Notes: a model not told the origin generated them from the letters alone. A stretch of DNA of 54,367 nucleotides from a virus (IMGVR_UViG_2531839448_000005:1-54367), one strand, 5' to 3'; positions 16,873-37,575 are shown, counted from the stretch's first letter. Program-made: numbers and translations.

Positions 16873-17609
16873 TTAAAGCGAACGGATGCCCACGCTGACC
16901 AGATGTTCAGACAGATCCAGCTCCGGTTCACCACCATTGACCAGCATCCGGCTCATTGCTGTAAACATCGCAACAGGGCCGTCGATTTTGGCTTCCAGCG
17001 TGGATTTATTCGGGAAGATATTGTCGTTTTTGTCCGGTTTTACCGTAACGTTAGACATCATCCAGTTCATGACCGGATGATTGCTGTGATGGAAACGCCC
17101 GGCATAGACCAGTGATTCCGTTTCCTTCATGGCCTCTGACAGATTGCGAACCGTCTGCGGAACCTCCACCAGCGGTATCCCTTCTTCAGCCAGTGCCAGG
17201 CTGAACTGCATCGCGCTCCACGGGTCAAATCCCAGTTCCCTGAGGTTTTCACCACCAATCCATTCCAGTAAGTCACTTTTTATCTGAGCATGATCGATAA
17301 CATCACCATCCGTCAGAATCAGCTTATCCATCTCCGCCCACTTCCGGTAAAGTTCTGCCTGCTGCCGCGAGCATCGTTCCAGCCGTCCTTCCGGAAGCCA
17401 GAATTTAAAATCGGCATGAACATGCCCGTTATCCGTTCGCCAGAGTTTTGCCGCCGCACAGATATCAATCTTATGAGCAAGGTCAACGCCGACCCACATG
17501 GGATACGTTTTCAGCTCATGTCGTGGGGCAATGTATTCGCACTTCTCCCACTTAATCATGTCCATCCAGGCAGACTCTGCTGTTACCCACACATTCATGT
17601 GTTTGGTAA
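16873..17609 (-). pseudogene. terL: terminase large subunit, C-terminal (nuclease) fragment of the resident prophage; separated from its 5' part by the 15 kb insertion
   Basis: ORF begins MNVWVTAESAW and aligns to the C-terminal third of the intact island terL (shared WxxSNV and KPNK motifs); in-frame stop lies immediately upstream inside the island. Confidence 0.85.
17603..17609. repeat. left junction core TTGGTAA (direct repeat with 32655-32661)
   Basis: identical 7 bp at both insertion junctions; flanks join to an in-frame terL. Confidence 0.6.
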
Positions 17610-17683
17610 GAATATTTCAAGTTTTTTAAAATCACCTGTATATCAATCATTTAACATGAAAAACAGTCTTTATAAATCATCGA

Positions 17684-17704
17684 GCAATACACAGCGCAAT
17701 ACAC
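17684..17704. repeat. tandem GCAATACAC arm-type repeat (copy 1)
   Basis: GCAATACACAGCGCAATACAC; near-identical copy at 32504-32524 just upstream of int. Confidence 0.5.
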
Positions 17705-17891
17705 GTATCTGTATTGTTTTAATGCTGATACACACCGTTTTTTGATACAGTGATTCGACCTACCATCGCGAAGCATTTTTATTTCTTGTGTGTAACAATC
17801 TGACGAGGTGAGCACTCAAAGAGATAAGAGGCAGTAGAAATTTCGATCCCCCCCCTGAATGCAATTTTTCGTATATATATATACAAAACAG

Positions 17892-18046
17892 TGCGGGTTA
17901 TGCGGGTTAGCGGGTTATCTTCGCGTGCTAAGTATTTTTTACTCTTTAATATCAATACGTTAAAAACAACGTATCTAAATATCAGCCAGAATGTAACCCG
18001 CAAGACATTCAAAATAACCCGCAAACACCACTCAAATAACCCGCAA
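17892..18046. repeat. iteron cluster A: 3 direct plus 3 inverted copies of GCGGGTTA(T) flanking an AT-rich spacer
   Basis: TGCGGGTTAT, GCGGGTTAG, CGGGTTATC at 17892-17919; TAACCCGCAA at 17994, 18014, 18036. Confidence 0.6.
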
Positions 18047-18125
18047 AAACATCCCTGAAAGTGGGTGCCGATAATACTGAAAATTTATTCCATTAAATGA
18101 GCATTGTCCTCTCTCATCCATTCCG

Positions 18126-19787
18126 TTACACACCATCAAACGTCGCAAGCCGCTCTTTGTGGCTGTCGCTCATATCGAATGCAAATTCCTCATGCTCTGC
18201 CTGGAATGTGCCAAACGCCATCAGCGCCGCAACGCTCGGGTCTATCTTGTTGGATGATTTTTTCTTGTTCGGCTTGATATTGGCGTTCGCGTCACTCTGC
18301 ATCACAACATTACTCATTGACCAGGCCAGCACCGGATCACCACGATGCACAATCACCTTCCGGTTAACAAAAACTTCGAACGATTTCGCCGCCGGACTGA
18401 AACGAAGGTACGTTTGCGGGAACGGCTCCACCTCAAATCCCGCCCCCTGTAGCTGTGTTCTCAGGTGAGTGGCGTTCCATGTATCGAAGCCCACCAGCCT
18501 GATACTGAAATTCTCTGCATCCACCATGATGTCATCACGGATACGGTCATAATCAATGCAGTCACCCGGTGTTGTGCGTATCCAGCCCGCCTTTACCCAC
18601 TGGCGATAAATGGCGCGGTTTTTATTGGCGGGGTTCTGTAACTGAAATTCCGGCAGATAGTGACGGGAAACCAGCATAATCTTTTTACCGACCGGAAAGG
18701 CATAGCACACGCTGGAAATATCGCTGGTTGATGATAAGTCCAGCCCCACGTAGCACTCCTGCCCGTATAAATCCGCCTCCGCGAACGTTCCGGCGCACTC
18801 CGCCCATGCACCGTTACCCATCCACGGCGTAGCCCCCTGACACCAGATATTGAATCGCTTGGTGAGCATTTCCACCCACTGCGACGGAATACCCCGCGCT
18901 TTCTGGATGGTTGAGGCCAGTTTTTCACGATCGACGGAAACATCGATATTGGGATTCGCCTTTATCCACATCGCCGGATCGTCAACCTCGCTTTCATCAT
19001 CCAGCTCGTAAATCAGTACGAACATGGATTCGTTCACCTCTTCACCATCCAGTATCTGGCAGCAATAGTCGTAGTGTTGTTTACAGGCTGAAACAACGTT
19101 GCTCCCCGATGTGGTGATGGCAAATAATAACCCCTCCGGACGCGCCCCCATTCCCAGTTCAAGCGCGGAATAAACCCCGTTGTCAGGGTGCAGGTGATAT
19201 TCATCTACAATGGCAAGACTCGGGTTTGTACCTTCAATGGTTGCCGCTTTTGCTGCCAGTGGCTTTAACAGGCTGTTGGTTTTCGGGTGTATCACCTTGT
19301 GTGCCTGAATATTTACCCGCTTTCGTAACGGTCGGGATAAAAGGCACATCTGACGCGCATCATCAAACACGATCCGCGCCTGATCACGACTCACGGCGGC
19401 GGTGTAAATATCCTGCTGCCCGTTTTCCATAACCAGAAACCAGTTAGCCAGGATAGCGGCGACCGTGGATTTGGCATTTTTTCGCGGTACTTCAATGAAT
19501 GCGCTGGTGTATTTGCGCCGTCCGGTGGCCTTAACCTTAAAGCCCAGGATGCACGCAAAGGCGAACTGCTGCCACGGCTCCAGCTCAATGGGGCTACCGC
19601 GCATTGCGCCTTTTACGTGCGGACACACCCTGGAAAAGGCAATAAACCGCTCCACGACCTCCGGATCGAACGTGTAAAGGGGGTTTTCAAGGTCAGAAAA
19701 ATACCGTTTAACGGCCTGTTTCAGTCGTTTACAGGCCGTAATTTTGCCGTTTTTTACGCCTTCTGCGTACTCATGCCAGGCGGTCAA
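18126..19787 (-). CDS. terL: terminase large subunit (island-encoded, intact)
   Basis: 553 aa; ATPase and nuclease regions homologous to the split resident terL. Confidence 0.85.
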   Translation of the reverse strand: MTAWHEYAEGVKNGKITACKRLKQAVKRYFSDLENPLYTFDPEVVERFIAFSRVCPHVKGAMRGSPIELEPWQQFAFACILGFKVKATGRRKYTSAFIEVPRKNAKSTVAAILANWFLVMENGQQDIYTAAVSRDQARIVFDDARQMCLLSRPLRKRVNIQAHKVIHPKTNSLLKPLAAKAATIEGTNPSLAIVDEYHLHPDNGVYSALELGMGARPEGLLFAITTSGSNVVSACKQHYDYCCQILDGEEVNESMFVLIYELDDESEVDDPAMWIKANPNIDVSVDREKLASTIQKARGIPSQWVEMLTKRFNIWCQGATPWMGNGAWAECAGTFAEADLYGQECYVGLDLSSTSDISSVCYAFPVGKKIMLVSRHYLPEFQLQNPANKNRAIYRQWVKAGWIRTTPGDCIDYDRIRDDIMVDAENFSIRLVGFDTWNATHLRTQLQGAGFEVEPFPQTYLRFSPAAKSFEVFVNRKVIVHRGDPVLAWSMSNVVMQSDANANIKPNKKKSSNKIDPSVAALMAFGTFQAEHEEFAFDMSDSHKERLATFDGV

Positions 19788-20127
19788 GCTCGTCCTCTTC
19801 CTCTGTTTCCGGTGGATTTCTGCGGCGACTTACCGGGTCAAAACCCAGCAAAGAAGCCATTTTGATCATTATTCTTTCAGCGTCAGCCTTTGCGCTCAGG
19901 GCGGGGTTTCTGCTCTCGCTGCCCTGACTGTTAACAATGCTGAACCCGCGCGTGGCAAGGTCTTCGACGGCTTTGCGGTATATGGAGTAGTTAACGCAAT
20001 ACAGCTCCAGATTGCTCCAGTCGGCGGGGGTAAGGTCTTCCCGTCCGGAAAGCTGGCGCGATTTTTCCTTCCACTGCCTGACCGCGATTTCATCCAGGTA
20101 AGCGGGGGCTTTTGGTGGTCTTGCCAT
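19771..20127 (-). CDS. terS: terminase small subunit (P27-like)
   Basis: start MARPPKAPAYLDE; homologous in outline to the resident terS at 33682-34164. Confidence 0.7.
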   Translation of the reverse strand: MARPPKAPAYLDEIAVRQWKEKSRQLSGREDLTPADWSNLELYCVNYSIYRKAVEDLATRGFSIVNSQGSESRNPALSAKADAERIMIKMASLLGFDPVSRRRNPPETEEEDELDRLA

Positions 20128-20246
20128 GTTCTTTTTTCGCCCAATTATTTTCAAAAAAATTCCCGTGCACAAAAATTTGAGGAGGCGGTCGGTGTCCGGC
20201 AGGGACGGTTTTGTCCTGAAAACCTCCCCCACCCCCTCTGACGGCC

Positions 20247-20423
20247 TCACCAGCGATTGCGAAAACATTCCATGACCTCGCGGTCACGGTCGGTTAATCG
20301 CTTCGCTGTGGTGCGTTCTGTGCGCCCTGTCCTGTTGGCTTTGTGCCCTGTCTCCTGTGTCTTCCATAAGTCACGCTGCCTTATCAGTCCACGTATCAGC
20401 CTGTTTTGCTCCTGTTCAGTCAT
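20247..20423 (-). CDS. hypothetical small protein
   Basis: 58-codon frame between HNH and terS; weak. Confidence 0.2.
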   Translation of the reverse strand: MTEQEQNRLIRGLIRQRDLWKTQETGHKANRTGRTERTTAKRLTDRDREVMECFRNRW

Positions 20424-20856
20424 CATCGCCATACATCCAGTCGTTACGGTGTGCCGCCCGTTCTTCCTGCTCGCGATACATACCCGCCTTACGGTTCGCT
20501 TTCGTGGCTGGATCTTCCCGTGTTGTCTTACGGTTATGGCACGTCTGGCACAATGCCTGGTGGTTCCACTCAGGCCAGAAGAGAACATCACCGCCGCCAT
20601 TGATGGGAATGATGTGATCCACCACAAGAGCTGGCGTATAAATCCCCTTAGCCAGACAACGCACGCATAACGGATTTTTGCTCAGGTACAGGGCGCGGTA
20701 TTTGTCCCACTGTCGGGAATACCCGCGCGCGCGGCGGTGTCCCCGTCTGGCATCCTCTGCACGCCATGCAGCCCGCCTGTGATCTTCGCACTTGCCGGAC
20801 TTCACGCGCTTATTACAGCCCGGCTCAGTGCATCGCCTTAATGGTTGCCACGGCAT
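20416..20856 (-). CDS. HNH endonuclease
   Basis: paired CxxC motifs plus HNH-like core DHIIPINGGG...NHQALCQTCHNRK. Confidence 0.8.
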   Translation of the reverse strand: MPWQPLRRCTEPGCNKRVKSGKCEDHRRAAWRAEDARRGHRRARGYSRQWDKYRALYLSKNPLCVRCLAKGIYTPALVVDHIIPINGGGDVLFWPEWNHQALCQTCHNRKTTREDPATKANRKAGMYREQEERAAHRNDWMYGDDD

Positions 20857-21155
20857 CAGTACACCCCTACATCACGATAAACCGACCAGAGCGCAGAAAT
20901 AGCCATAGGCAGTTCAGACTGCTCCACAGGTGAAACCGCTTCCCTGTTCTCGTACAGGAAAGCGATGTACATCAGGCAACCAACACGTATTGCCGGGGTA
21001 AATTCCAGCCCGTCTTCAAAACGTTTCCCGATATGCTTCTGGCAGGCTTCCAGCGCCGCATCGGTATACATTTTCAGAAGTTCGCCCTCACCTGAGAAGT
21101 CATCAAGGCGAAGATGTGCCCTGACTTCATCAGGTGTAATTTTTTCTTCACTCAT
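20856..21155 (-). CDS. head-tail connector protein (gp6-like)
   Basis: start MSEEKITPDEV; about 100 aa; similar in outline to the resident connector. Confidence 0.55.
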   Translation of the reverse strand: MSEEKITPDEVRAHLRLDDFSGEGELLKMYTDAALEACQKHIGKRFEDGLEFTPAIRVGCLMYIAFLYENREAVSPVEQSELPMAISALWSVYRDVGVY

Positions 21156-22362
21156 CTTTTTCACCTTTAATTTCCACCGTCTGCTTCCATGCCTGGCTGA
21201 ACTCGTCACCACCTTCACGCGGCGGCATCCCCTCACGTTCGCGGGCTTCGTTCGGATTCATGATCCCGTTCTTAATCCCTTTCTCATACGTGGCGTAACG
21301 CTCGGTTGGAGTAGCGCGCAGTAAATCGGCTGAATCAAACTCAACCAGATAACGGGTACCAGGTATGGGAGAAGCCACCAGCAAAGCGGCCTTAATTTGC
21401 TGTTCGAAGTTCGCCAGCCATGGGCGCATTGTCATGGTCAGAAACGCGCGGCTTGCCTCACTGAAATTGCTGTAGGTGCTGTTGCTGTATTCCTGAAGAA
21501 AAATCGGCGACACGTTGAACATCCGGGCGATGTCTTCAATGGAGAAGCGACGGGAGGCCAGCCATTCTGCATCCTGGTTACTCATCCCCAGTTGCTTGTA
21601 ATCCATACCCCCTTCAAGGATTGGCGTTTTTCCGGCATTTTTCGCCCCCTTGTAGCGTTCCAGGGCGTCTAATGCCTGTTTACCTTTCACGCCGTCCAGC
21701 CATTCGCCTGACGTGATAATCCCTGCCGCCATCATGCCATCTTTCATAATGCTGGCTCCGTGACGCTGTTGAGCAAGGCCAAGCCCCAGCGCCTCACGGC
21801 AAATCGTGACAGGGGAGCGCCCCAGAAAGCCATCATCCGAGGCATAGCGGAGATGCAGAACTTCTTCCTGCAAATACGTGCGCACCGTTCCTGTATAGGG
21901 TTCGGTGATGGTATAGCGGTATTTGTGTGCGCCAGTGCGTTCCGGTACAACACACCCCGGCGCATAAGGATGAAGTGATTTTGGCTGACCGTCCCGCCCC
22001 CACTCAATAACCGCATAGGCGTTACCGTTCAGCAGGCAGTGACGCATCATTGTGCGTTTAAACTGGTAAGGTGTCTGGCACGAATTAGGCTGCTCATTCA
22101 GCAGAATATCGACCGGGTGACTGTCCAGCCATTCCCGCGCCTCCCTGCCCTTGTCATTGCGTACCAGATACAGATAACACGGCATCGTGGCCACCGCCTC
22201 AGCGATGACAGAAACCGCGTTCATCACAGCAGGCAATGATTCAGCCGTCCCGGCAGAAACATATTCTCCGGATCCGGTATTCGGTACGCCGGACAGCGCC
22301 AGAAAATCATCAATGGACAGGTTACGCAGATCGCTTTTTTTACGACTAAAAGGCCACCACAT
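21148..22362 (-). CDS. portal protein
   Basis: about 405 aa from MWWPFSRKK; pattern resembles the resident portal. Confidence 0.75.
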   Translation of the reverse strand: MWWPFSRKKSDLRNLSIDDFLALSGVPNTGSGEYVSAGTAESLPAVMNAVSVIAEAVATMPCYLYLVRNDKGREAREWLDSHPVDILLNEQPNSCQTPYQFKRTMMRHCLLNGNAYAVIEWGRDGQPKSLHPYAPGCVVPERTGAHKYRYTITEPYTGTVRTYLQEEVLHLRYASDDGFLGRSPVTICREALGLGLAQQRHGASIMKDGMMAAGIITSGEWLDGVKGKQALDALERYKGAKNAGKTPILEGGMDYKQLGMSNQDAEWLASRRFSIEDIARMFNVSPIFLQEYSNSTYSNFSEASRAFLTMTMRPWLANFEQQIKAALLVASPIPGTRYLVEFDSADLLRATPTERYATYEKGIKNGIMNPNEAREREGMPPREGGDEFSQAWKQTVEIKGEKDE

Positions 22363-22363
22363 A

Positions 22364-22924
22364 TCACAACCCCGCCAGTTCAGCCCAGCGATGACGATTA
22401 TTTCCTGTCGGGCGTAATTCAGGGTGCTGTGCAAACAACGAACGGTGGGCAATCTCCACGCCGGATTCGGGATAAGCAGGCATCGACGTTATCGTGATTT
22501 CACGGAGTTCTGCGGCGGTAACAGTGCGCAGATACGGTTTTTGCGCGATATTCCACTCTTCGCATAATGCGCGAAAGCCAAAGCTCATTCCTGTAATGTC
22601 GCCACGCTCCACCAGCGTAAGCACATCTTTTCCAAGCTGGGTATCAGGCGGTGTCAGTTCAAAACGTAGCCCGGTGTTGTCCTCAGTCAGTACCAGTGTT
22701 CCGGATTTGGTGCGCCCCAGCAGTCGGGTATAGTCATGCTCATACAGGCAGCGCACATCATTACCCGCCGCCAGATAGTCAGCAAAAGCCCCCGGCGTGA
22801 ACTGTTCGCGGAATTCGTCCCAGATAATTTCTGAAAGGCTGTTCCAGCGAACGGCATACCCCACCAGCTTTTTATTGCTGGCGGTCAGTTCAGATGTGCG
22901 GATTTCAAAATCGGTGTTTTTCAT
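22364..22924 (-). CDS. prohead protease (HK97 / peptidase U35-like)
   Basis: 186 aa; GYAVRW, YEHD and GMSFGF motifs. Confidence 0.7.
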   Translation of the reverse strand: MKNTDFEIRTSELTASNKKLVGYAVRWNSLSEIIWDEFREQFTPGAFADYLAAGNDVRCLYEHDYTRLLGRTKSGTLVLTEDNTGLRFELTPPDTQLGKDVLTLVERGDITGMSFGFRALCEEWNIAQKPYLRTVTAAELREITITSMPAYPESGVEIAHRSLFAQHPELRPTGNNRHRWAELAGL

Positions 22925-22978
22925 CGGTGTACTCCATAAAGCTGAAAAAGGAGGCCGCAGCCTCCTCCTTACTCATGA

Positions 22979-24148
22979 CTAGCCAGCTTTCATTTCCAGA
23001 ATTTTGATGGCGTTTGAATCCACCACACCACCGCCCAGATATTTATCCGTGTGGACCTTGTAGAATCCGGGTTCAGTAATGTTGTCCGGTCGGGTGCGAA
23101 TCCCTGTTACATGATCAACGATGAAATAACCACGACTGAAATCGCCAACCGCTAGCGGTGCTTTTCCTGCGCCGATGTCCGGCATGGACTCCAGGCAGAA
23201 AACAGGACGACCAAGCAACATATCCGGCGCACCTTCTTTAAGGCTGTCGCGCCAGATATAATCGCCATTCTCATTTTTCAGCTTCTGTAGTGTCCCTGCC
23301 GTGCCCGAGTTCATCACCCAGACGGCATTTTTGCGGTATTTCGCTTTCAGCTTGTAGAGAATGTCGATCAGTTCGTCCGCTGTAATGGCGGTTCCACTTG
23401 CCGCTACCACTTTTTCAATGGTGCCAAAAGCGCGGGTTTTGTCACTGGTCGCCGCACGGGTGTAAGCCATGAAGCCTTTCGGCTTGCCGTTACCGTCGCC
23501 ATTAACAAAATCATCCTCTTCGGTGCTGGCGAACGTGTCGGCAATTTCGGAGGATAACCAGCCCAGAATATCCACCTCTGAAAAATCCAGGATTTCCTGC
23601 GTGGTTTTCGGGTAGGCGTAGATCGGATTCAGCTTGATGGTTACACGTTCAATTTTCGGGGTGTTGGTTTCACTACGTGCGCTGCCTTCTGTGCCTCGTC
23701 CTACAGTTGCGCCGCCAGTGGAAACCAGTTTCTGAAACTCATTTGATTTTGCGGTCTTCACGGTCGCGATCACGCGCATAACACTGTCATCCTGTAGCTG
23801 GCGCATGACTTCGCGATCAAGCTCAGGAATTACGGTATATCCGCCATCCCTGCCGCTGTCAGTGCTGGTGGACAGTGATCGCACATCTCCGGTTACGATG
23901 TAGTTACGCAATTCATCAGATGATAATTTCTGGATGCCCGTTCCTGGCTTGCTGCGTTCTTCATCAGCCACAGACTCGAGGCGGTAAATTTCTGTGTCGA
24001 GGGAATCGGCTTTTGCACGCAGTTCATCAAACTGTTTGCCCTCGTCATCGTTCAGGCTGCGGTTTTCACTGTCGGCTTTTTCCAGCAGGGATCGCATCTG
24101 GTTTTTCAGGGCGGTTTTTTGCTGGCGGAGTTCGATTAATTTCTTCAT
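22979..24148 (-). CDS. major capsid protein, HK97 family
   Basis: 389 aa; coiled-coil N-terminus; GDGNGKPKGFMAY and DSNAIK motifs parallel the resident capsid protein. Confidence 0.85.
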   Translation of the reverse strand: MKKLIELRQQKTALKNQMRSLLEKADSENRSLNDDEGKQFDELRAKADSLDTEIYRLESVADEERSKPGTGIQKLSSDELRNYIVTGDVRSLSTSTDSGRDGGYTVIPELDREVMRQLQDDSVMRVIATVKTAKSNEFQKLVSTGGATVGRGTEGSARSETNTPKIERVTIKLNPIYAYPKTTQEILDFSEVDILGWLSSEIADTFASTEEDDFVNGDGNGKPKGFMAYTRAATSDKTRAFGTIEKVVAASGTAITADELIDILYKLKAKYRKNAVWVMNSGTAGTLQKLKNENGDYIWRDSLKEGAPDMLLGRPVFCLESMPDIGAGKAPLAVGDFSRGYFIVDHVTGIRTRPDNITEPGFYKVHTDKYLGGGVVDSNAIKILEMKAG

Positions 24149-24422
24149 GAAGGTTTTCTCGTATTGGTTAAGATTCAGGACGTGAAACCAACACGGAGGG
24201 AGCGCCGCCCGACACTCTCGGCATCTCGCAGATCAACCCGGCATCGCGCAGGGGGTCAGGCGGCATTGTGGCGGCTCACGTCTGAGTGCCACACGCCAAC
24301 ATATACATAAAAATCAGTATGTAAACATCAGCCAGAATCACCGAACAACCTGGAACAACCACGAACAAATAATTTACAAAACCTGAAAAAAAGACCTGGA
24401 GAAAATCCAGGCCTTTATCGCT

Positions 24423-24671
24423 TTATTGTTTCACTGGATCCCGCATTCTGCGTCTTATTTTCCACAGATATTCGATCATCGCTTCCACCTGCTCACGATT
24501 GGTTGCGAAAATTTCCCCGGTCAGTGAGCTGCGCAGAAAATCATGATGATCCACAACAAACAACGCATCGGAAGAAAGCAGACGGCGATATTTTTTTGCT
24601 GTCGTGGTTTCCAGATCATCAAAACCATGAAACTTTTTATGTTGCTGGACTTCTTCAAATGTCACTGGCAT
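24423..24671 (-). CDS. hypothetical protein
   Basis: 82 aa ORF. Confidence 0.35.
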   Translation of the reverse strand: MPVTFEEVQQHKKFHGFDDLETTTAKKYRRLLSSDALFVVDHHDFLRSSLTGEIFATNREQVEAMIEYLWKIRRRMRDPVKQ

Positions 24672-25204
24672 GTATCCCCCTTTGCCGCCCGGCGCTGGCG
24701 CTTGTGCTTCTCATTCAGCGCCATCAGCCGCGTTTCTGCCTCCTGCTGTTCCTGTGGTGTCACTTCCCCACATGGCTGGCCTTTCAGGTCGTATCGTACC
24801 CCACCAGCAACCAGGGCGCGGTAATAGCGCGGAGACTGCGCATAAGATGCCAGCGTCGCACGTAATGCCCCCGGCCCGAATGCCAGCCCCCTGACGGCGA
24901 GATCCTGCATCAGGTCGTCGAATATCCCCACCTTAAGCGGCTTCGGTGCTTCCCTGTTGAATAAGTCAGGCCACATCTCAGTGAGGCGGTTAACGCGCCT
25001 GCGGTTTTTGCGCTGGCGTTTGGTCATATGCCGCCACGGTGTCACCCCTGTGGGCTGCCCTTTGCGGCTCTGCTGTGCGTTCTGATTGCCGGGTATCACT
25101 TTATGCGCCGATGTGGTTTTATCCCGCTCTTGCGCCGCCTGCGTCGTTTTCTGCGGCGTGCCGTAAATGCCTTTCGGTTTTCGGTTAATGGTCAGCTTTG
25201 TCAT
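24662..25204 (-). CDS. ProQ/FinO-domain RNA-binding protein
   Basis: LKVGIFDDL...ALRATLASYAQSPRYYRALVAGGVRYDLKGQPCGEVT aligns by eye to the E. coli ProQ N-terminal domain as recalled. Confidence 0.6.
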   Translation of the reverse strand: MTKLTINRKPKGIYGTPQKTTQAAQERDKTTSAHKVIPGNQNAQQSRKGQPTGVTPWRHMTKRQRKNRRRVNRLTEMWPDLFNREAPKPLKVGIFDDLMQDLAVRGLAFGPGALRATLASYAQSPRYYRALVAGGVRYDLKGQPCGEVTPQEQQEAETRLMALNEKHKRQRRAAKGDTCQ

Positions 25205-25368
25205 GCCTTCCCCTGTAATTACTCTGTTCGCTGTTGTGAATTAAAACGGTATGTTATCCCCGTACAGGTCATCGTGCTGGCCTGTCTGTTGTTTTGCCCT
25301 GTTCAGTGCGTCAGTGGCCTGCCCCTGTTGGCCTTTTTTGCCGCCCGGTCGCGCCGTTCTCGCACTGA

Positions 25369-25665
25369 TTACGCTGTCTGCGATGACCTGCCAGCCCTGC
25401 CGCGTTTCGCCGTTCTGCCCTGTCCACTGCTTACCTGCATGTTACCCGCCACGCTCACCAGTTCGCCTTTGCGGTGTTTTGCCAGTGCGTCGGCCTGTCT
25501 GCCAAACGCCAGGACGGATAACCACATCGTCGCCGTTCCGTCATCTGCCTGGCTGCATGGCAGGGGAACCGCCATACTCGCCATCGCCATTTGTGTTCCC
25601 TTGCTGGTGGTCTTTAACTGCGGGTCAGCCACCAGCCGCCCGTAAGCCGCTATCTGTGCTGTCAT
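25369..25665 (-). CDS. SSB-like OB-fold protein (tentative)
   Basis: 98 aa; pattern GRLVADPQL...WLSVLAFGRQADAL...GELVSVAGNMQV resembles an SSB core. Confidence 0.35.
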   Translation of the reverse strand: MTAQIAAYGRLVADPQLKTTSKGTQMAMASMAVPLPCSQADDGTATMWLSVLAFGRQADALAKHRKGELVSVAGNMQVSSGQGRTAKRGRAGRSSQTA

Positions 25666-25728
25666 GCTGTCTGCTCTCCGGTTTTAACGTTGATGGTTAC
25701 GCTTGTTTACACCCTTACGGTGAAATTC

Positions 25729-25854
25729 TGCGGGTTATAATCGCACTTTTGCGGGTTATAACTGCCGTTTTGCGGGTTACGTGCGGGTTATTGATTTCCT
25801 TTTTATTCATACAGTTAATGCACTTATATACATGATAACCCGCATAACCCGCAA
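25729..25854. repeat. iteron cluster B: 4 direct plus 2 inverted copies of TGCGGGTTA(T) flanking an AT-rich spacer; candidate replication origin
   Basis: copies at 25729, 25751, 25771, 25782 (direct) and 25835, 25845 (inverted); immediately 3' of the primase gene. Confidence 0.6.
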
Positions 25855-25875
25855 CTTTTCACCTCACACAGGGGG

Positions 25876-27999
25876 TTAATCTTCTGCCTCAGGCTGGAAC
25901 ATCAGCACGTAAAAAACATGCTGCTTCCCCCCAATTTTGCCGAGCGCCTTTTTCTTGTAACGGCGATCGTTACCCGCTTCCAGCATTCCGGCAGCACTCA
26001 ACGCGCGGGCAAAGTGAGACGGATTAAATCCCTGTGCTATCTCACCCTCAAATACATGCGGGAACGTGTAAAAACGGAACTCGTCATCTTCGTTTCTGAT
26101 ACTCCCCTTTCTGTATCCGGCAAGTTCTTTAATCGATAAATCACGCTCGTCGGTATTGGGCCACGGAAGGTATCTGCTGAATCCGAACGACGCTAAAAAA
26201 GCTTCTGCCTGTTCAACCATCTGTTTAAATTCCCTGTTACCCGTGCCGAACTCCTTCACCCAGGCATTAAAATTATGCTGTATGGCATCGCGGCATTCCT
26301 GCTCATCCCAGCCAGTAACATGACCTGAAAGCACAAGCGCGGCCTCCAGTATGGCAAATCGCTCCCCCACACGGTGAACCTGTTCGCCGTAGCTCTCCGG
26401 TATCAGGTTGCGCCACCGCTCACGGCATGTCCTTACCGTGTCCTTTGCCTCCTGCTGGTGTTCTGCCAGCCATTTAACCCACTCACGACCCGCCGCCCCG
26501 TGATTTTCTGTCCAGGCATCCTTTAACGCGTCTGCGTGCGCCTTTCCGGTGCTGTATTCGTGAAATTGCGTGGCTTTTTCCATCGGAACGTTAAGCAGGC
26601 GGACAAGCTGCCCCGCTTTGACTTTTATCCCCTCCGTTTTGAGGAATGTCTCAACGTCCATTTCTCCGGTGCTGATTGCCACCGTGCGCCAGTGTTTGAT
26701 CTCCCTGTTGCCGCCGTCCTTCGCCCCCTGTAATTTCCCCGAACCGTTAAACAGCGTATAGGCTGACGTGGACACCTCCCGCGCGTTTCCGGCCTGGCCT
26801 ATTTCATCCAGGGGTAAAAGCCCGTCATTGTGTGCCTCTGCTTCGTTGGCGATACCTAACGCTGTGCCGTACCAGGTCAGCCGCTGCGCGTCCGGCTCTC
26901 CCCATAAACTTGATGCGATGTTCTGTGTGGTGGTTTTCCCTGCCGATGACTGTTCGAAAAGATGTACCCCGAAGCCGTCAGCGCCCACCAGCCCGATTAA
27001 TGGTGCGGATAACGATACCGCCACACCCAGCATCATGGACGGATTACCACCAGCCAGCCGCGCAACGGTATCGCGCCAGCCCTCCGCCGTTCCTGCCACG
27101 GAATAGCCATTAACAGCAGCCGTTTTTCCGGTAAACAGGACTGGCTTTTCGCAATCACCAATGACCGAACCGTCCGGCATGATGTACGCGCCAAAATGCC
27201 AGCCCGTTGTTGTGCTTAACTGCCATTCCTCATGGCTTCCGCTTAACTGCATCCAGTCAGCCAGGATAGCCCTGTATTTACCGTTGGTTGTTACGTTCAG
27301 TCCGTGGTCTTTCAGCAACCGCCAGCCGTCACGGTCGCCAATGCCACCGCACGGAACCGCCATTGTGATGACTTCATGGTTTGCTAATTTTTTCCAGCGC
27401 ATCACGCGGTAATGCTCTTTACCGATTGTCCCCGTTCCCAGTAGTTCAAGCGGGGAACATAACCACGTCTCAGGCCGGATAATTTCGCCTGACTGCTTAT
27501 CCACTTTTGGCGTTACCCAGAAAACACCATCGGCGCGACTTTCAACGCGGGGCTTTAATTCATCATCGCCCTGGATTTCTGTGATTTTTTTCTTTAAGGG
27601 CAACACCAGACTTTCCCCGCGCTCGTATTCGTCTTTGAGGCGAGGCAACTGGTCGGATAAATCCGCCGGGCTGATGTCAGTTATCCCCGCGTATTCGTAT
27701 ACGGTCTTCACGCCAGCCACAGCCAGCAACGTGACGATCTGTGTAAGGCTACGTTCAGTGATGTGCCCTGCGCGGTAAACACGCACACACTGACGGCTAT
27801 CATCAATAATTTGATAACCGGTAATATCTTTCAGGTGTTCATCTGACAGAACGACAGGCGGCACATTGTCGGCGGCAATATGCTTACCTGCCCATTCCTG
27901 CCACTCTTTCGCATGGCTCCACGCATCACTACCCGCAAAGATGATAACCTCCGTCATTTTGTCGGCTGGCTGGTGCTTTAAGTTTGGTGCGCGCTTCAT
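25876..27999 (-). CDS. primase / replication protein (P4 alpha-like, DUF927-type)
   Basis: 707 aa; central Walker-like GEPDAQ...SSAGKTT region; adjacent iterons. Confidence 0.6.
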   Translation of the reverse strand: MKRAPNLKHQPADKMTEVIIFAGSDAWSHAKEWQEWAGKHIAADNVPPVVLSDEHLKDITGYQIIDDSRQCVRVYRAGHITERSLTQIVTLLAVAGVKTVYEYAGITDISPADLSDQLPRLKDEYERGESLVLPLKKKITEIQGDDELKPRVESRADGVFWVTPKVDKQSGEIIRPETWLCSPLELLGTGTIGKEHYRVMRWKKLANHEVITMAVPCGGIGDRDGWRLLKDHGLNVTTNGKYRAILADWMQLSGSHEEWQLSTTTGWHFGAYIMPDGSVIGDCEKPVLFTGKTAAVNGYSVAGTAEGWRDTVARLAGGNPSMMLGVAVSLSAPLIGLVGADGFGVHLFEQSSAGKTTTQNIASSLWGEPDAQRLTWYGTALGIANEAEAHNDGLLPLDEIGQAGNAREVSTSAYTLFNGSGKLQGAKDGGNREIKHWRTVAISTGEMDVETFLKTEGIKVKAGQLVRLLNVPMEKATQFHEYSTGKAHADALKDAWTENHGAAGREWVKWLAEHQQEAKDTVRTCRERWRNLIPESYGEQVHRVGERFAILEAALVLSGHVTGWDEQECRDAIQHNFNAWVKEFGTGNREFKQMVEQAEAFLASFGFSRYLPWPNTDERDLSIKELAGYRKGSIRNEDDEFRFYTFPHVFEGEIAQGFNPSHFARALSAAGMLEAGNDRRYKKKALGKIGGKQHVFYVLMFQPEAED

Positions 28000-28310
28000 T
28001 TTGCCTTTCCCCGTTCACGAATAATTTCACGTACTGCCTTAATGCGTTCCATTCCTGTAACGCGCATGATTCTGTCGATGTCGCTTAATTCTGCTGGTGG
28101 TGCTTTACTTACCAAGGTGAACTCCCTGTCAAAGCGCATATGTGACGACACGCAGGGATGCGCATAACCTTCGCGGATATAGGTCACACGAAAATCATCG
28201 ACGGTTTTGATCGTTATCGTGCTGCCGTATTTATCCTGGAAAATATCGCCGGGGCGGATTTCAGGCCGAGCGGGGCCGCTGGCAGTAAAGCCAGAATTTT
28301 TCTTTTTCAT
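27996..28310 (-). CDS. hypothetical protein
   Basis: 104 aa ORF overlapping the primase start. Confidence 0.4.
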   Translation of the reverse strand: MKKKNSGFTASGPARPEIRPGDIFQDKYGSTITIKTVDDFRVTYIREGYAHPCVSSHMRFDREFTLVSKAPPAELSDIDRIMRVTGMERIKAVREIIRERGKAK

Positions 28311-28315
28311 GTTTT

Positions 28316-28564
28316 TTACTCCAGAGGCAGCTTTTTAGCGGCGAGCTCAATATCAGATGTCAGAGAAACCTGTGTATTTGCCAGGTCTAACAACAAAGAA
28401 ATAAGAATTTCTTCTCTGCTATCGGATTTATCGGTGCTAAGGCTGTTCATCCACATATTGACGACTTCCCTGATTTTTTTCGCAGAGTGCAGGGCTTCAA
28501 ATGCCAGGTCTTCAATATCATGTTTATTTCGCATAATCGCCCCCGCCATTTTCACAATCAGCAA
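28316..28564 (-). CDS. hypothetical protein
   Basis: 82 aa ORF. Confidence 0.3.
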   Translation of the reverse strand: MLIVKMAGAIMRNKHDIEDLAFEALHSAKKIREVVNMWMNSLSTDKSDSREEILISLLLDLANTQVSLTSDIELAAKKLPLE

Positions 28565-28769
28565 TCAGGATGGCTTTTGCCTCATTCAGCGCCATATCAG
28601 CACTAAATTGCATAACAGCCAGTGAGTGAGGAACGAAAGCCCCGGCATATTCTGTTTCGCTGGTGGCGTGCTTATGCGCCTTGTCTGCGATAACAGAAAT
28701 ATCAATCAGCGCGTGCATCAGCGTTTTGATGGCTTCGGCGGCTGCGTCCGGACGGGTGTTATTGCACAT
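28524..28769 (-). CDS. hypothetical protein
   Basis: 81 aa ORF. Confidence 0.3.
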   Translation of the reverse strand: MCNNTRPDAAAEAIKTLMHALIDISVIADKAHKHATSETEYAGAFVPHSLAVMQFSADMALNEAKAILIADCENGGGDYAK

Positions 28770-29073
28770 GGCGCACCTCCTGACGAATACGGGCAGCGAA
28801 TACCATCACGCAGCCAGCCGGGGATTGCTGGCGTGCTTCCTGTTCGCTAGTGGCCTCAATGGTAATCACACGCGGTTGTGCCGTGCTCAGGGCGATAAAA
28901 CGCCAGATGTATTTATTCAGGTTGTGCGAGTCCCGCCCTTGCGGGTGTGTGGTATGATTTAACATAGCTACCTCGATAATCTTGCTATCGTTGGTGGTTA
29001 GAAGCCCGGTTAGTGTTAGCGCACTGCCGGGTTTCGTCGTTTGTATTTCAATAAAACCATTGGTGTGTTTCAT
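28759..29073 (-). CDS. hypothetical protein, first gene of the island leftward operon
   Basis: manual call: ATG at 29071-29073 inside the operator motif, 105 codons; the 393 aa track ORF is a read-through artefact. Confidence 0.35.
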   Translation of the reverse strand: MKHTNGFIEIQTTKPGSALTLTGLLTTNDSKIIEVAMLNHTTHPQGRDSHNLNKYIWRFIALSTAQPRVITIEATSEQEARQQSPAGCVMVFAARIRQEVRHVQ

Positions 29074-29150
29074 GTTATTTTGGAGTGAAACACACGTCAA
29101 GCCTTTTTTGTATTTCTTTTTTGTGTATACTGAAACACACCAAATTTGAG
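29050..29150. promoter_or_regulatory. divergent promoter region with three copies of operator-like motif TGAAACACAC / GTGTGTTTCA
   Basis: copies near 29055-29068, 29083-29096 and 29138-29150 between divergent genes. Confidence 0.5.
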
Positions 29151-29161
29151 GAGTTTCAGTT

Positions 29162-29467
29162 ATGGCGACTACCAACAAAAACGCTAAATCACAATTGACC
29201 ACCGTCAGAGTCCCCCACGATGTTATGGAGGGCATGGAATCCGTAAAACTGGACGGCGAAAGCAACGCCGGATTCATAGTAACCGCCATGCGCGGTGAGA
29301 TCGCCCGCCGCCAGGCAGAAGGAAGCGGAGAAAATCCCCTGGTTTCTTCGCTCGATGCACTGGCGCAGGTGGAAAAAATTGGAGTCAAGGCTGCCGAGGA
29401 GATCGGGCAACTCGTCACCGTCGCGCGTGAAGAACTCCAGCGACGCAAGGTCAAAGAGCAGGAATAG
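29162..29467 (+). CDS. hypothetical protein, candidate island regulator
   Basis: 101 aa ORF divergent from the island operon, directly downstream of the operator triplet. Confidence 0.4.
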   Translation: MATTNKNAKSQLTTVRVPHDVMEGMESVKLDGESNAGFIVTAMRGEIARRQAEGSGENPLVSSLDALAQVEKIGVKAAEEIGQLVTVAREELQRRKVKEQE

Positions 29468-29524
29468 CCACTATCAGCGCCATAGTTTGAGGAACGCAGG
29501 CGCATTGCTTTACAGGACAGCACC

Positions 29525-29704
29525 ATGAGCGACACAGAATCAACCAAAACACCATCACCAACTCGTAAGAGACGACGCAAAAATATAGCGCATGAACATG
29601 AATCAGAAAGATTCGCACCTTGTTCGTTTGCTCTTGAGAAATTCCTTAAAGAGCACAGGAAAAAGCTCTCGTTGCAAACCTTGGAACGAACCAAATCTGA
29701 CTGA
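29525..29704 (+). CDS. small basic protein
   Basis: manual 59-codon ORF MSDTESTKTPSPTRKRRRKN; below the track length cutoff. Confidence 0.25.
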   Translation: MSDTESTKTPSPTRKRRRKNIAHEHESERFAPCSFALEKFLKEHRKKLSLQTLERTKSD

Positions 29705-29770
29705 TCACATTGCCCACCAGCCGCAAATGTGGCATTGTTGGTGATGCTTTTGTTTTCCCTTGTTCCCACT

Positions 29771-29800
29771 GGCGACCCTTTTGCGGTCGCCTTTGTTTTG
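29771..29800 (+). terminator. rho-independent terminator
   Basis: GGCGACC/GGTCGCC stem followed by TTTGTTTTG. Confidence 0.6.
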
Positions 29801-29892
29801 CCTGTTATCCGGCAATAGTGGCGCTTCGTCACCTGTCTGATATAATTCCACAGCTTATATTCATTTTTTGCGCAGTAGGTTAATTGTTCGCA

Positions 29893-29926
29893 AGGGCGCT
29901 CCGGCAACGGGGCGCTTTTTGTTTTT
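29893..29926 (+). terminator. rho-independent terminator
   Basis: GC-rich hairpin followed by TTTTTGTTTTT. Confidence 0.5.
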
Positions 29927-30084
29927 ACCCACCAGCACAATAAAAATCTTCATTTTCCATTTTTGTAAAATTTCATGCTTTCCGGACGACTGGTCATATG
30001 TCATTTTTTAGCAGAAGATTTTGCCTTGCTGGTGGGTAGCTTCCCGGTCAACACGATGTACCGTATAATCAACACCGCGTGTGG

Positions 30085-30663
30085 TTACTGAATACGCTCA
30101 CCAAAGTAAAACTCAGGCTGGTATTCACGTATCAGCCTTTTTTCTTCTTCCTCCAGCTCACGCTTTTTGCGCTTACATGCCTGTAGCTCCCTCCCCTTCT
30201 CACTGGCACTTATCTGGTATTGCTCTTTGCGGCGGGAAAAATCCTGTAATGCGCCCCACGGGATACCATAAGCCCCCGTTTTTCTGATACCCGGTATCAC
30301 ATTTCTGAATACCCAGTTACTGAAACGATGAGCAAATGTGCCAGGCGTCGTTGCTTTGCGGCTGCGGGCTATTAGTTTGTAGAAACCTGACTCGGAGATA
30401 ATGCTCATATTCTGATTTCCTCCGGGGGTGTAAGTTAAATTTACTCCCTTTTCGTCATCATCAAGCATCTGCAACGCCGTACGCGAATTGGTCAATTCCA
30501 GCGCAGCACAAACATCCTTTGCAACAAACCACGGATCGCCGTTTAGATACACCACACGAACATCCACGCCATCAAAGCGCAGAACGACCAGATCACGAAT
30601 ATCACAGAATTTTTTCACATGACGTGCGTCACCCTTGCCCGTCACGGCAATATTTTTATTCAT
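30085..30663 (-). CDS. Bro-N domain protein (antirepressor-like)
   Basis: N-terminal Bro-N-like pattern RVVYLNGDPWFVAKDVCAAL...ESGFYKLI...FSNWVFRNVIPGIRKTGAYG. Confidence 0.65.
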   Translation of the reverse strand: MNKNIAVTGKGDARHVKKFCDIRDLVVLRFDGVDVRVVYLNGDPWFVAKDVCAALELTNSRTALQMLDDDEKGVNLTYTPGGNQNMSIISESGFYKLIARSRKATTPGTFAHRFSNWVFRNVIPGIRKTGAYGIPWGALQDFSRRKEQYQISASEKGRELQACKRKKRELEEEEKRLIREYQPEFYFGERIQ

Positions 30664-30720
30664 TGCTTTTTACCTCACATACAAAAAACCCCGCATTGCG
30701 TGGTGCGGGGTTGTCGGTAA

Positions 30721-30999
30721 TTACTTATTGGCGTTTTTGTATGGGCTGTTTACTTCCTTTACTCCTGGCGGATGCATAACCCACCAGAGCACATCAGAGA
30801 GCAACCAGGAAACAGACACTTTCCCTAAATGAGCACGAGCAGGAAATGCTCCCTCCTGTTCAAGTACCCAACGTCTGCTTCTTGAAAGCCCGGTACGATT
30901 GGCACACTCATGTTCGCGTATACGGCGATCATACGGTTCGCCATGATCTTTCAGAATCTGAATGCGTTCTTCGGGTGTAGGATAAATAAATTTTTGCAT
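30721..30999 (-). CDS. AlpA-like small regulator (tentative)
   Basis: start MQKFIY; small basic protein adjacent to alpA. Confidence 0.4.
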   Translation of the reverse strand: MQKFIYPTPEERIQILKDHGEPYDRRIREHECANRTGLSRSRRWVLEQEGAFPARAHLGKVSVSWLLSDVLWWVMHPPGVKEVNSPYKNANK

Positions 31000-31062
31000 A
31001 AAAATATCACCTATAAAAAAACCCGCCAAAAGACGGGTTGATTATATCTCATTTAATTTAGC

Positions 31063-31296
31063 TCAGGGTTTCCATTCACCTTTTACCCATTCCAGCACCT
31101 CAGATAAGCGCCAGACTTTTGTTTGTGGGCCAATACATATTTTTCGTGGAAATTTTCCTTCCTTTTCAAGTAACGATCTGTGTCTCCTGCCAAGAGCGGT
31201 TAACCATGCACATTCATCCTCCTTAATCATCCTGTCGATTGTTTCATCATTTTCAAGTTCTTCACGCGTAACTATTTGAATCATTACTGTCACCAC
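31063..31296 (-). CDS. alpA: AlpA-family transcriptional regulator
   Basis: 77 aa ORF directly upstream of int; small basic winged-helix-like protein. Confidence 0.55.
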   Translation of the reverse strand: MVTVMIQIVTREELENDETIDRMIKEDECAWLTALGRRHRSLLEKEGKFPRKICIGPQTKVWRLSEVLEWVKGEWKP

Positions 31297-31329
31297 TAAT
31301 TTGCTTATTCAGATAGTCGTACCACCAGT

Positions 31330-32483
31330 TCATAGCTTCTTTTTTCTGTCCATATACTGGCTTCTGTTATAAACCCCGGCAACACCGCCTAATGTGTGCC
31401 CAAGCAACTGTTCAACCACATTATGTTCAAAACCATGATCACTTAGTTTTGTGGCAAACACTCTTCGCATATCATGCGCCGTCCATTTCTCCGAGTGTTT
31501 CATCCTTTTCCATGTCTTACCGATAGTTACGCTTGCCGTACACTGACGCATATCAAACCCAATCACATTTTCTTTGTTACCTGTTATTTTTTTAACGTAA
31601 CTAACCAGTTAAACATGCCATCAGGAATCGGTCTGATTATTTCCCTGCCATTTTTGCTATGATCAGCGGGAACGCGCCATAATTTCTTATCAAAATCCCA
31701 CTCTACCCAGGACGACAGTAATACTTCTGACAGTCGACAACCAAAAACTACCAGGAAACGTAAAATAATTCGGTTTTCATATGATAATTCGTGATTGTCA
31801 TAATCAGTATTAATACTTCGCCATAAATCTCTGATTTCATCATCTGTTAAAACCCTGCTTCTTCGCGCAGACTTTTTTCCCACATCACAGACCTCAAGAT
31901 CATCAATTTCATGACTAATCGCGTATTTTCTTACCCTACAAAATTTAAGCGCCTGTTTTGATATACGCAACAAAGCTCCGGCCTGTACAGGTGCTACTTT
32001 TTTTATTTTGTCAAAACACTTAATCCACATAGATATAGAGCAATCACTAAGTGGTACATGACCAATCACCGGATAAATATGTTTACCAAAGCACTGCCTG
32101 ATATGTTCTGCTCCCCTACGCTTATCCATTGCATAATTATCAAGCCAGTATTCAAGTGCCTCACGAACGGTAACAGGTTGCAAGGTGGCTTCCCGTTCAA
32201 TTTTTATCTGAATCCGTGGATCTCTGCCCTCCGCAAGCCAGGTTCGACACTGATCGCGCATCTCTCTCGCTGATTTGAGACTCAGATCAGGATATTTTCC
32301 AAGTGTCAGCCAGATGGGCGCGGTTCCCCTTCCCGCCAGTCTGTAAAAGAAAACAAAACTAACACATCCGTATTTACTGACCCGTACCGAAAGCCCGTTA
32401 CCATCAGCGATGGTTTCCTGCCTCTCACTCCTGCGCCCAAGCAGGGAACGAAGTTTTTTATCGCTCAGTTTGTTTAGCGCCAT
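31330..32483 (-). pseudogene. int: tyrosine integrase (P4-like), frame-broken at an A7 tract near 31580-31590
   Basis: 311 aa N-terminal ORF plus 78 aa C-terminal ORF carrying HxxR...Y catalytic region (HDMRRVFAT...GVYNRSQY); adding one A rejoins the frames. Confidence 0.8.
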
Positions 32484-32503
32484 GTGATTTATAACCCGTT
32501 TTT

Positions 32504-32524
32504 GCAATACACAGTGCAATACAC
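32504..32524. repeat. tandem GCAATACAC arm-type repeat (copy 2)
   Basis: GCAATACACAGTGCAATACAC just upstream of the int start. Confidence 0.5.
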
Positions 32525-32654
32525 AAATGATGAAAACAGCCAGAACCTTCCAGAAAAAACAAAAACGACGAACAAGAAAAAATCTTTTTCTTTCATTTGG
32601 TTACTAAAAAAATCAGGACAGGTCGCACTGTTGTTACGGCGTGATGTTACTTTC

Positions 32655-32661
32655 TTGGTAA
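32655..32661. repeat. right junction core TTGGTAA
   Basis: direct repeat of 17603-17609. Confidence 0.6.
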
Positions 32662-33682
32662 AAAAATTCACCCGCGCAGAGACCTGTTCTTTCGCTTTTT
32701 TCGCCAGGCGACGCAGATCATCCCAGCGTTTACAGATGCCCAGGCCGGGATTCGCTTTCTGCCAGACCGTTTCATCAAACGGATCATCTCCCTCATCGAG
32801 GGTGTAAATAATCGCAAAGTAGGAGTCGTCTTTTACAGCGCCCTCCACATCGCTGTTATAGCCACGCAATACCTTGATGGCGTAATCACGCTGCTCGTAA
32901 CAAATCCCTTCCTTGTTAAACCCTGCCGTGGTGATACCAAATAACAGGGACTGCAGGCGGGCACCGGTTGCCGTTTCCAGAACGTCCCACACGTCGCGGG
33001 TTTTATGTGCATGCAGCTCATCAATAATGGCGCAGTGGATGTTCAGACCATCCAGGTTGTTTGCATCCGAGGAAAGCGGTTCAAATTTTGATGCGCTCTG
33101 CTCCTGGTAAATCGCCAGCTTGTTGAAATCAAACAACCGCCCGAGTGTCGACCGGGCTTTTCTGACCATATTTTTGGCGTCTTCAAACACAATTCTGGCC
33201 TGGTCACGCGTGGTGGCGGCTGAATACACCTCAGCACCGCCTTCACCATCTGCCCCCGTCATATACAGGCCGATACCCGATGACAGAGTTGATTTTGCGT
33301 TTTTACGGGCGACTTCGTTGTACGCCGTCCGGAACCGGCGCACCATCACCGGACGTCCGCTGCCATCGCTGCGCATGACAACTTCCCCGGTCTCTTCATT
33401 CACCAGCGGAATGACAAAACCAAAAATATTAATGAGGATAAATACATGCCAGTCCATCAGTTCAATGGGCTGGCCTGCCAGCGCCCCTTTTACATGAGGC
33501 ACAAATTTGTAGAAATTCAGGATGTGCTGCGCACGGGGTTCACTGAAATAAATCCCCCGCTCTTCGCCGTACTTCAGATCATCAAGAAAACGCTGGCAGG
33601 CCAAGCGGACAAATTCGCCAGCAACAATTTCTCCTGCAACAACACGTTCGGCGTAGCGGATCCCGTCAGCCACTTTTGCCAT
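32655..33682 (-). pseudogene. terL: terminase large subunit, N-terminal (ATPase) fragment of the resident prophage
   Basis: ORF reads terL-like sequence to ...ARVNFFTKK then 53 unrelated codons inside the island; Walker-type motifs present. Confidence 0.85.
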
Positions 33683-37419: not shown

Positions 37420-37494
<75 letters not shown>

Positions 37495-37497
37495 ATA

Positions 37498-37573: not shown

Positions 37574-37575
37574 AC

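Follow-up and report, generated by a model that had tools for sequence, protein, structure and literature searches.

The closest described relatives of the island analysed here are the helper-embedded PICIs of Tommasini, Mageeney & Williams (2023, NAR Genom Bioinform 5:lqad036, PMC10111431), which occupy 14 sites in prophage late genes. These satellites have the orientation of the surrounding late genes, which lets late transcription and replication enter the satellite (PMC10111431). The same study described a doubled motif, tgTGTATTGCantgTGTATTGCa, of which two co-oriented copies flank the attP centre, one 81±2 bp upstream and the other 132±2 bp downstream, and already offered the hypothesis that these are arm sites. 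The TGTATTGC motif was reported to be absent outside helper-embedded PICIs, the fis PICIs included, and the equivalent that fis PICIs do carry, TGTATAAAC, goes unmentioned (PMC10111431). For the E. coli group A_Terminase_1_246, the supplement to that study gives the att identity as 'ttaccaa' or 'tcacgaa'. Capsid-forming PICIs (cf-PICIs) have been defined as elements of 10–15 kb with int, alpA, a primase and their own TerS, TerL, portal, protease, capsid and connectors, tail and lysis genes being absent (10.1101/2022.09.08.507074).

Our material is one stretch of viral DNA of 54,367 nt (IMGVR_UViG_2531839448_000005), called the window throughout. An initial annotation had pointed to a tandem repeat just inside both ends of an island in this DNA and had likened it to arm-type integrase binding sites. 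The motif, its positions, the island group and the arm-site reading have all been known since 2023 (PMC10111431). The finding as given is thus a re-discovery of a published motif, island group and interpretation, and in that form matters very little. What we add to the 2023 paper is small: a variant of the motif in fis PICIs, a covariation between the motif and the N-terminal domain of the integrase (Int), and a less good fit of the AlpA proteins to the motif.

The island and its helper

The insertion comprises the following features, in window positions.

17610 to 32654, minus strand (all main genes): island of about 15.05 kb, a capsid-forming PICI-type satellite embedded in its helper
32655 to 33682, minus strand: 5′ part of the helper terL, with the ATPase domain and the start of the nuclease domain
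16873 to 17609, minus strand: 3′ part of the helper terL, with the nuclease domain from profile position 64 of 286
17603 to 17609, no strand: left core copy TTGGTAA, TTACCAA in the int direction, followed by the imperfect extension GAATATT
32655 to 32661, no strand: right core copy TTGGTAA, from alignment with intact terL

The host of the island is a lambdoid, HK97-like E. coli prophage, and the insertion lies in its terL, with the island genes and the helper terL co-oriented, all on the minus strand. The locus is a clean example of a satellite wired into its helper, with the terminase gene split by the island and int placed where late transcription should run into it from upstream. The core was placed by comparing each junction, in alignment, with the terL of phage vB_EcoM-606R7, which has no insertion; beyond the 7 bp of TTGGTAA the match is imperfect (GAATATT versus AAAAATT). 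When called mechanically, the open reading frame (ORF) of the 5′ part of terL continues into the island arm up to 32489.

Pfam profiles in the island match TerS, TerL, portal, capsid, a DUF927 primase and Bro-N. Combined with RefSeq gene names, which were taken from a 99.8% identical copy of the island (L001, NZ_OZ282453), they give a morphogenesis set made up of the small and large terminase subunits, an HNH protein, a head-tail connector, portal, prohead protease and major capsid. The other genes encode ProQ/FinO-like, SSB, DUF927 primase, Icd-like and BRO-N proteins, two AlpA-family proteins and a tyrosine integrase. With this gene set, which is that of the published definition, the island is a capsid-forming PICI. 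Its junctions are identical to attL and attR of entries in A_Terminase_1_246, for example Eco1012.15 (supplement, PMC10111431), and by junction sequence it belongs to that group.

The 7-bp core depends on the strain, being TTGGTAA, TTCGTGA or TTTGTGA. In each of the nine contigs with both junctions (the window, L001, L011/L125, L007/L127, L080/L126, L026/L147, L043/L137, L063/L139 and L047/L124) it equals the local terL allele, and the two ends always agree, mixed pairs being absent. By our own codon reading, TTGGTAA and TTTGTGA appear to be synonymous terL alleles. The matched cores fit a strand exchange that requires identity in the overlap, each island retaining the core sequence from the helper it occupied before. 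What looked like a fourth core variant, 'TTGCTCT', proved to be a chance match of the search string in unrelated DNA.

Some further features of the island and its surroundings can be recorded. An inverted set of short repeats lies in non-coding DNA that is bounded by the end of the island and the stop of its own terL; in this set three copies of TGCGGGTTA (8–9 bp apart) oppose three of TAACCCGCA (21–22 bp apart), at 17892–17917 and 17994–18046; this set is a candidate for the packaging site of the satellite (cos/pac, small-terminase). In the helper, four tRNA genes (Gly-tcc, Thr-tgt, Lys-ttt and Met-cat) at 37420–37729 lie between the Q antiterminator and holin genes, upstream of terS, terL and the island and on the same strand, and a tRNA-Ser(cga) gene is found at 53387–53476, close to the window end. 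At 6872–10099 and 24945–25369 of L001, the RefSeq annotation records an internal stop in the helper tape-measure gene and a frameshifted island ssb.

The doubled motif, its geometry and its relatives

The motif and one neighbouring feature are placed as follows.

17684 to 17704, minus strand: int-distal doubled motif, GTGTATTGCgctGTGTATTGC in the int direction, P′ arm of the rebuilt attP
32504 to 32524, minus strand: int-proximal doubled motif, GTGTATTGCactGTGTATTGC in the int direction, P arm of the rebuilt attP
17641 to 17653, plus strand: TATCAATCATTTA, which fits the IHF consensus WATCAANNNNTTR without a mismatch and lies between core and distal pair, a hint only

Read directly from the plus strand of the window, the sites are GCAATACACAGCGCAATACAC (17684–17704) and GCAATACACAGTGCAATACAC (32504–32524). 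Both 21-base sites share the pattern GCAATACAC-N3-GCAATACAC on the same strand, each doubled motif consisting of two 9-bp half-sites with a 12-bp period. Over both strands of the 54,367 bp the exact 9-mer GCAATACAC has four copies, all within the two pairs, so that the search for further copies which the initial annotation suggested yields no exact ones in the window. A high frequency of the motif, which that annotation had named as an objection to its reading, is thus not observed in the window. When up to one mismatch is allowed, the half-site has 16 matches (12 of them one-mismatch copies) against 13.3 expected, which is the chance level. The doubled pattern, with up to three mismatches, is found in the window at the two sites only; shuffling gives an expectation of 0.08, and not one of 100 shuffles reached two matches.

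The placement given in the initial annotation is borne out by this reading. The tandem repeat does lie inside both island ends in the same orientation, at the coordinates reported, and the distances to the junctions, put there at about 75 and 130 bp, are 74 and 130 nt by alignment with uninterrupted terL. The first is the gap, inside the island, between the start of the left pair and the left core copy, and the second that between the end of the right pair and the right core copy. The right copy precedes the int ATG, whose A is at 32483 on the minus strand, by 20 nt, in keeping with its description as just upstream of the int start.

Five nucleotides after the distal pair there is an inverted 7-nt partial copy, TGTATTG (17710–17716), in the arrangement CAATACA-cgtatc-TGTATTG; it belongs to this island type only and is not conserved in the distal arms of other lineages. 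For the match to the IHF consensus at 17641–17653, no equivalent was seen by eye in the distal arms of other lineages. The doubled motif itself is unlike an IHF site (PMC10111431).

When attP is rebuilt from the two junctions, the distance from the start of the distal pair to the start of the core, and from there to the start of the proximal pair, can be compared between islands with different cores.

Core TTGGTAA (window): 81 bp and 151 bp
Core TTTGTGA (L001): 82 bp and 151 bp
Core ATCGCCTT: 82 bp and 150 bp
Core TGGATCAT: 80–82 bp and 151 bp

Start to start, the two pairs of the rebuilt attP are 232 bp apart in the window and 231–233 bp apart across lineages (232±1), and their four half-sites are co-oriented and divided 2 + 2 between the two arms. 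Motif and geometry are kept across relatives whose integrases are only 43–70% identical and whose cores differ. Since the same distances are found with different cores, the pairs belong to a fixed recombination architecture, regardless of the insertion target.

Related islands, in which the initial annotation had proposed to look for the motif, have it at both ends, so that the second objection named there, absence from those ends, does not apply either. The 170-bp int-side arm is present in 36 of 5,426 complete E. coli genomes, and each copy adjoins a split 'terminase large subunit'. A scan for the integrase in one genome per species gave two loci, both in Xenorhabdus, with an Int 66% identical to that of the window; pairs of the form G(T/C)GTATTGC-aat-GTGTATTGC lie 20–30 nt upstream of int in otherwise diverged DNA, a result that concerns the int-side pair only, the far ends falling outside the 10-kb flank. 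In IMG/VR the doubled motif is found in at least 118 stretches. Among the matches listed, 66 of 139 occurrences lie 15–68 nt upstream of an Int homologue (43–100% identity), and in nine loci two co-oriented pairs are separated by 8.6–11.7 kb, one of them having int immediately on its inner side. Set aside were matches in giant-virus contigs (L028, L038, L041, L109, L111, L116 and L117), which are 12-bp minisatellites or repeats in coding sequence, and lone chance matches (L039 and L040). A collection assembled from the integrase, by protein and without use of the motif, contains 80 loci, and all readable upstream regions have a tandem pair of 12-bp period before int. These pairs are mostly (G)TGTATTGC.

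A third half-site is seen in some islands: L186 has three tandem copies of GTGTATTGC, and in a portal-targeting group an extra GTGTATTGC lies 28 nt downstream of the pair, nearer int (L009, L020, L024 and 12 similar loci).

To judge from their flanks, islands with the same arm motif are inserted in the portal gene (L020, L100, L113, L115 and L114), in a ClpP protease-capsid fusion (L015, L075, L082 and L098), in capsid E (L023, L042, L051 and L056) and in another terL (L037 and L085), and in Xenorhabdus L004 the island lies just after a gpA-type terL. The islands in these other prophage head genes are co-oriented with the host gene, and the Pfam profiles end at the junction. Late-gene insertions of this kind had already been published, as the 14 sites of helper-embedded PICIs (PMC10111431).

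The fis PICIs have a different version of the same arrangement. 'Escherichia phage vB_KppS-Ant' (LR881103, L123) is an induced, packaged element of 16.5 kb with an intact attP upstream of int, and its Int is 47% identical to that of the window. The core of this element, GTATCAGTTCATGCCGTA, is the fis identity block of PMC10111431, so the element is a fis PICI. It carries TGTATAAAC-ata-TGTATAAAC at 4850–4870 and TGTATAAAC-att-TGTATAAAC at 5083–5103, 233 bp apart. The doubled TGTATAAAC motif occurs in 76 IMG/VR stretches (within L207–L282), and in 34 of 85 occurrences it lies 19–32 nt upstream of an Int homologue. Pairs in fis PICIs are exactly 91 bp before the core start in 34 cases and 142 bp after it in 23 cases, which sums to 233 bp; the same 233-bp spacing is present in the three circular forms with an intact attP (L123, L261 and L277). 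Both arms have thus switched together with the geometry kept, as expected if one protein reads all four half-sites.

Two minor variants of the int-side motif, GGGGTACTC pairs in L159 and L206 and GCAGTCAGT pairs in L267, define classes documented from the int-side pair only. In L267 a TGTATAAAC pair (3763–3783) lies 235 bp upstream of the GCAGTCAGT pair (3998–4018), int starts at 4067, and the integrase that follows the GCAGTCAGT pair stands apart in its N-domain. The arrangement resembles an internal junction between tandem PICIs, two at the same site, whose arm motifs differ (class B and class D).

The repeat might instead be a chance or neutral duplication, or the terminal repeat of a transposon-like element, in which case the 7-bp core would be a target-site duplication. 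The agreement of the core with the local terL allele at both junctions, in 9/9 contigs, does resemble target duplication; matching cores would also follow from a need for identity in the overlap during strand exchange. Chance sits badly with an expectation of 0.08 for the doubled motif, and neutrality with a motif and geometry kept over integrases that are 43–100% identical. As for a transposon-like element, transposase is absent, the repeats are direct rather than inverted, and relatives with intact attP circles exist (L123, L261 and L277). Precise, integrase-type excision has moreover been measured for one family member (PMC10111431). These readings are effectively refuted by the excised attP forms and the published excision data. 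For the core we prefer a strand exchange dependent on homology to a target-site duplication, and we regard this whole family of explanations as extremely improbable.

Which protein reads the motif

Three genes at the int end of the island matter here.

31262 to 32483, minus strand: int, P4-type tyrosine integrase with an Arm-DNA-bind_3 N-domain
31063 to 31284, minus strand: alpA1, 73-aa AlpA-family protein (Pfam Phage_AlpA, 1.7e-9), directly downstream of int
30721 to 30999, minus strand: alpA2, second AlpA-family protein, 92 aa (Pfam Phage_AlpA, 5.6e-10)

The coordinates of alpA1 and alpA2 were transferred by offset from the 99.8% identical L001. The N-domain of Int matches Pfam Arm-DNA-bind_3 over residues 7–93 (E = 6.5e-18) and has the solved DUF4102 N-domains 3JU0 and 3JTZ as homologues. 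In its intact form, in L001, the protein has 407 aa; WP_001197052.1 is an intact copy. R250, K277, H337, R340, H363 and Y372 are invariant in an alignment of eight relatives, and we take them to be the catalytic residues of a tyrosine recombinase.

The window copy of int has two 1-nt homopolymer deletions in T runs, near 31587 and 31340. Its first ORF, of about 300 aa, ends at 31584 and does not reach the catalytic residues, and the catalytic-domain match covers profile positions 2–80 of 172 only. In comparison with L001, five single bases are missing from the window, each from an A/T homopolymer (31340, 31587, 17658, 17775 and 17962), and these deletions may be assembly errors of long-read sequencing. 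The alternative is that int is frameshifted, which leaves the satellite locked in and the helper terL permanently split. With int frameshifted in the window, the system may be inactive here.

We consider it probable, with fairly good confidence, that the doubled motifs are arm-type binding sites of the island's P4-type integrase. The N-domain, the geometry, the layout in P4 and the covariation of arm and N-domain all point this way, and the arm-type reading of the initial annotation is supported to that extent. As far as sequence can tell, the marks of a heterobivalent integrase are present, namely an N-terminal arm domain and, on both arms, repeats that are unlike the core and at a fixed distance from the crossover.

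The following course of events is proposed. In the excised circle the pairs would lie about 98 bp to one side and about 134 bp to the other side of the 7-bp crossover core. Each of the four co-oriented half-sites would take up the N-terminal arm-binding domain of one protomer in an integrase tetramer, whose C-terminal domains would hold the core sites, and the bridging of arm and core would build an intasome that inserts the island into the prophage terL, leaving one pair in each junction. With an AlpA-type helper protein, the intasome would cut the island out again and restore terL; the arm sites would thus be the handles that the integrase needs for excising the island and restoring the gene.

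Integrase bound to the proximal pair would probably also damp transcription of int. This autoregulation is proposed because the int-side pair is only 20 nt upstream of the int start codon. A scan of 340 bp around the proximal pair (32380–32720) gave no sigma-70-like promoter, so autoregulation is without support from the sequence and an overlap with a promoter cannot be claimed; by eye, TATAAA is seen 4 nt before the int ATG.

The pairs could also be read by AlpA1 or AlpA2, acting as a directionality factor for excision or as a regulator of int. Two Phage_AlpA genes directly follow int; in every class-A lineage examined int is followed by an AlpA1 orthologue, which fis PICIs lack at that place, and AlpA1 is a candidate both for the excision factor and for the rival reader of the motif. 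Sites of directionality factors usually lie on one arm only, as in lambda, P2/186 and KplE1, and this confinement is not seen here, where the pairs are divided 2 + 2 between both arms. In addition, the putative recognition helix of AlpA1, assigned by analogy, varies within class A (RRHRSL, SQYIRK, NSTRWK, KSTRAF and QAGLYR) whereas the motif is invariant. The AlpA2 of fis PICIs is 57–58% identical to that of the window, above many class-A AlpA2 proteins (35–53%), and yet the fis motif differs. No further tandem copy was found at any island promoter in the window. AlpA was named as an alternative reader when the motif was published (PMC10111431), and directionality-factor sites are, according to the abstract of PMC7498355, typically direct repeats one helical turn apart; the 12-bp period is, however, common to arm-type and directionality-factor sites, and so does not discriminate. 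On balance we think AlpA, although the main rival, an unlikely reader.

The case for the integrase over AlpA comes from this apparent mismatch and from the way in which the sequence of the site tracks the N-domain of Int. Four motif classes can be told apart, each with class-specific residues: all of 42 distinct class-A N-domains have Q22, F43, P56 and W58, none of which occurs in class B, C or D, and R34 and position 46 also switch between classes. By analogy with related folds, the class-specific residues would be placed in the three strands of the N-domain. Where the core-binding and catalytic domains have diverged to a like degree (40–50%), the N-domain is 66% identical to that of the window Int in distant class A, compared with 50–54% in the other classes. 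The covariation rests on about three independent switches and could be explained by shared ancestry; since the motif classes are also phylogenetic clades, it is limited as evidence and falls short of proof.

The same covariation bears on whether the pairs are architectural attP elements bound by a host factor or by another island protein. The published description left 'some unknown DNA binding protein' as an option (PMC10111431), and the geometry ties the sites to the recombination architecture only, saying nothing of what binds them. A host factor would, however, explain neither why fis PICIs (E. coli and Klebsiella-type) and helper-embedded PICIs, clades that share their hosts, differ in the motif nor why N-domain residues of Int change with it, and we find such a binder very unlikely.

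The arm motif and Int positions 22, 34, 43, 46 and 56–58 may form a switchable recognition pair, with a geometry of about 232 bp throughout, that has been re-set several times: to TGTATTGC in helper-embedded PICIs, to TGTATAAAC in fis PICIs, to GGGGTACTC and GCAGTCAGT in the minor classes and to TGGGGGCAT in P4. We put this forward tentatively, as a plausible idea that is somewhat short of probable and that extends past PMC10111431. Were it true, satellites that reside together and share an attB would be protected by their divergent arms from mutual excision or scrambling, and the tandem fis PICIs of L267, whose internal att joins a class-B to a class-D pair, suggest insulation of this kind. 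Taken together, the fis-PICI motif, the class-specific N-domain residues and the P4 parallel offer a cheap experimental test of the integrase against AlpA, and possibly a starting point for re-targetable, mutually orthogonal pairs of integrase and arm.

Comparison with known integration systems

The arrangement has a parallel in P4 (NC_001609), where a 12-bp 'attP arm sequence repeat' forms co-oriented tandem pairs on both sides of the core, as in the window. The P4 pairs are at 3942–3965, 16 nt upstream of the int start (20 nt in the window), and at 4151–4174, and the P4 integrase has the same Arm-DNA-bind_3 type of N-domain as the window Int. The systems differ in the motif (TGGGGGCAT in P4), in the core (20 bp, in a tRNA-Leu gene), in the spacing from pair to pair (209 bp versus 232 bp in the window) and in two extra single copies in P4. 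P4 was absent from the sampled matches of a phage-database search with the window Int. The N-terminal part of P4 Int reportedly suffices to repress Pint.

Lambda Int is alike in that its N-domain binds arm sites apart from the core, that these are present on both arms, and that tandem arm sites lie about one helical turn apart (described in part in PMC2951348). Lambda differs in having five sites, divided 2 + 3, with the P and P′ sites oppositely oriented; its int is transcribed towards att, whereas that of the window is transcribed away from it, and its N-domain belongs to a different Pfam family.

In KplE1 (CPS-53), the arm-type P′ sites of IntS overlap the intS promoter, and negative autoregulation has been demonstrated by experiment (Panis et al. 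2010, PMC2951348). There too int abuts the junction and is transcribed away from it, with arm-type sites just upstream, and this likeness is the basis on which autoregulation is proposed for the window. KplE1 differs in its excision factor, TorI, for which five sites are mapped, and in that its promoter has been located, whereas none was found in the window.

The closest match is with the helper-embedded PICIs (PMC10111431). The window has the same tgTGTATTGCantgTGTATTGCa sequence with its tandem TGTATTGC core, the same co-orientation and the same proposed function, and the distances from the attP centre, published as 81±2 and 132±2 bp, are about 78–81 and 134 bp in the window.
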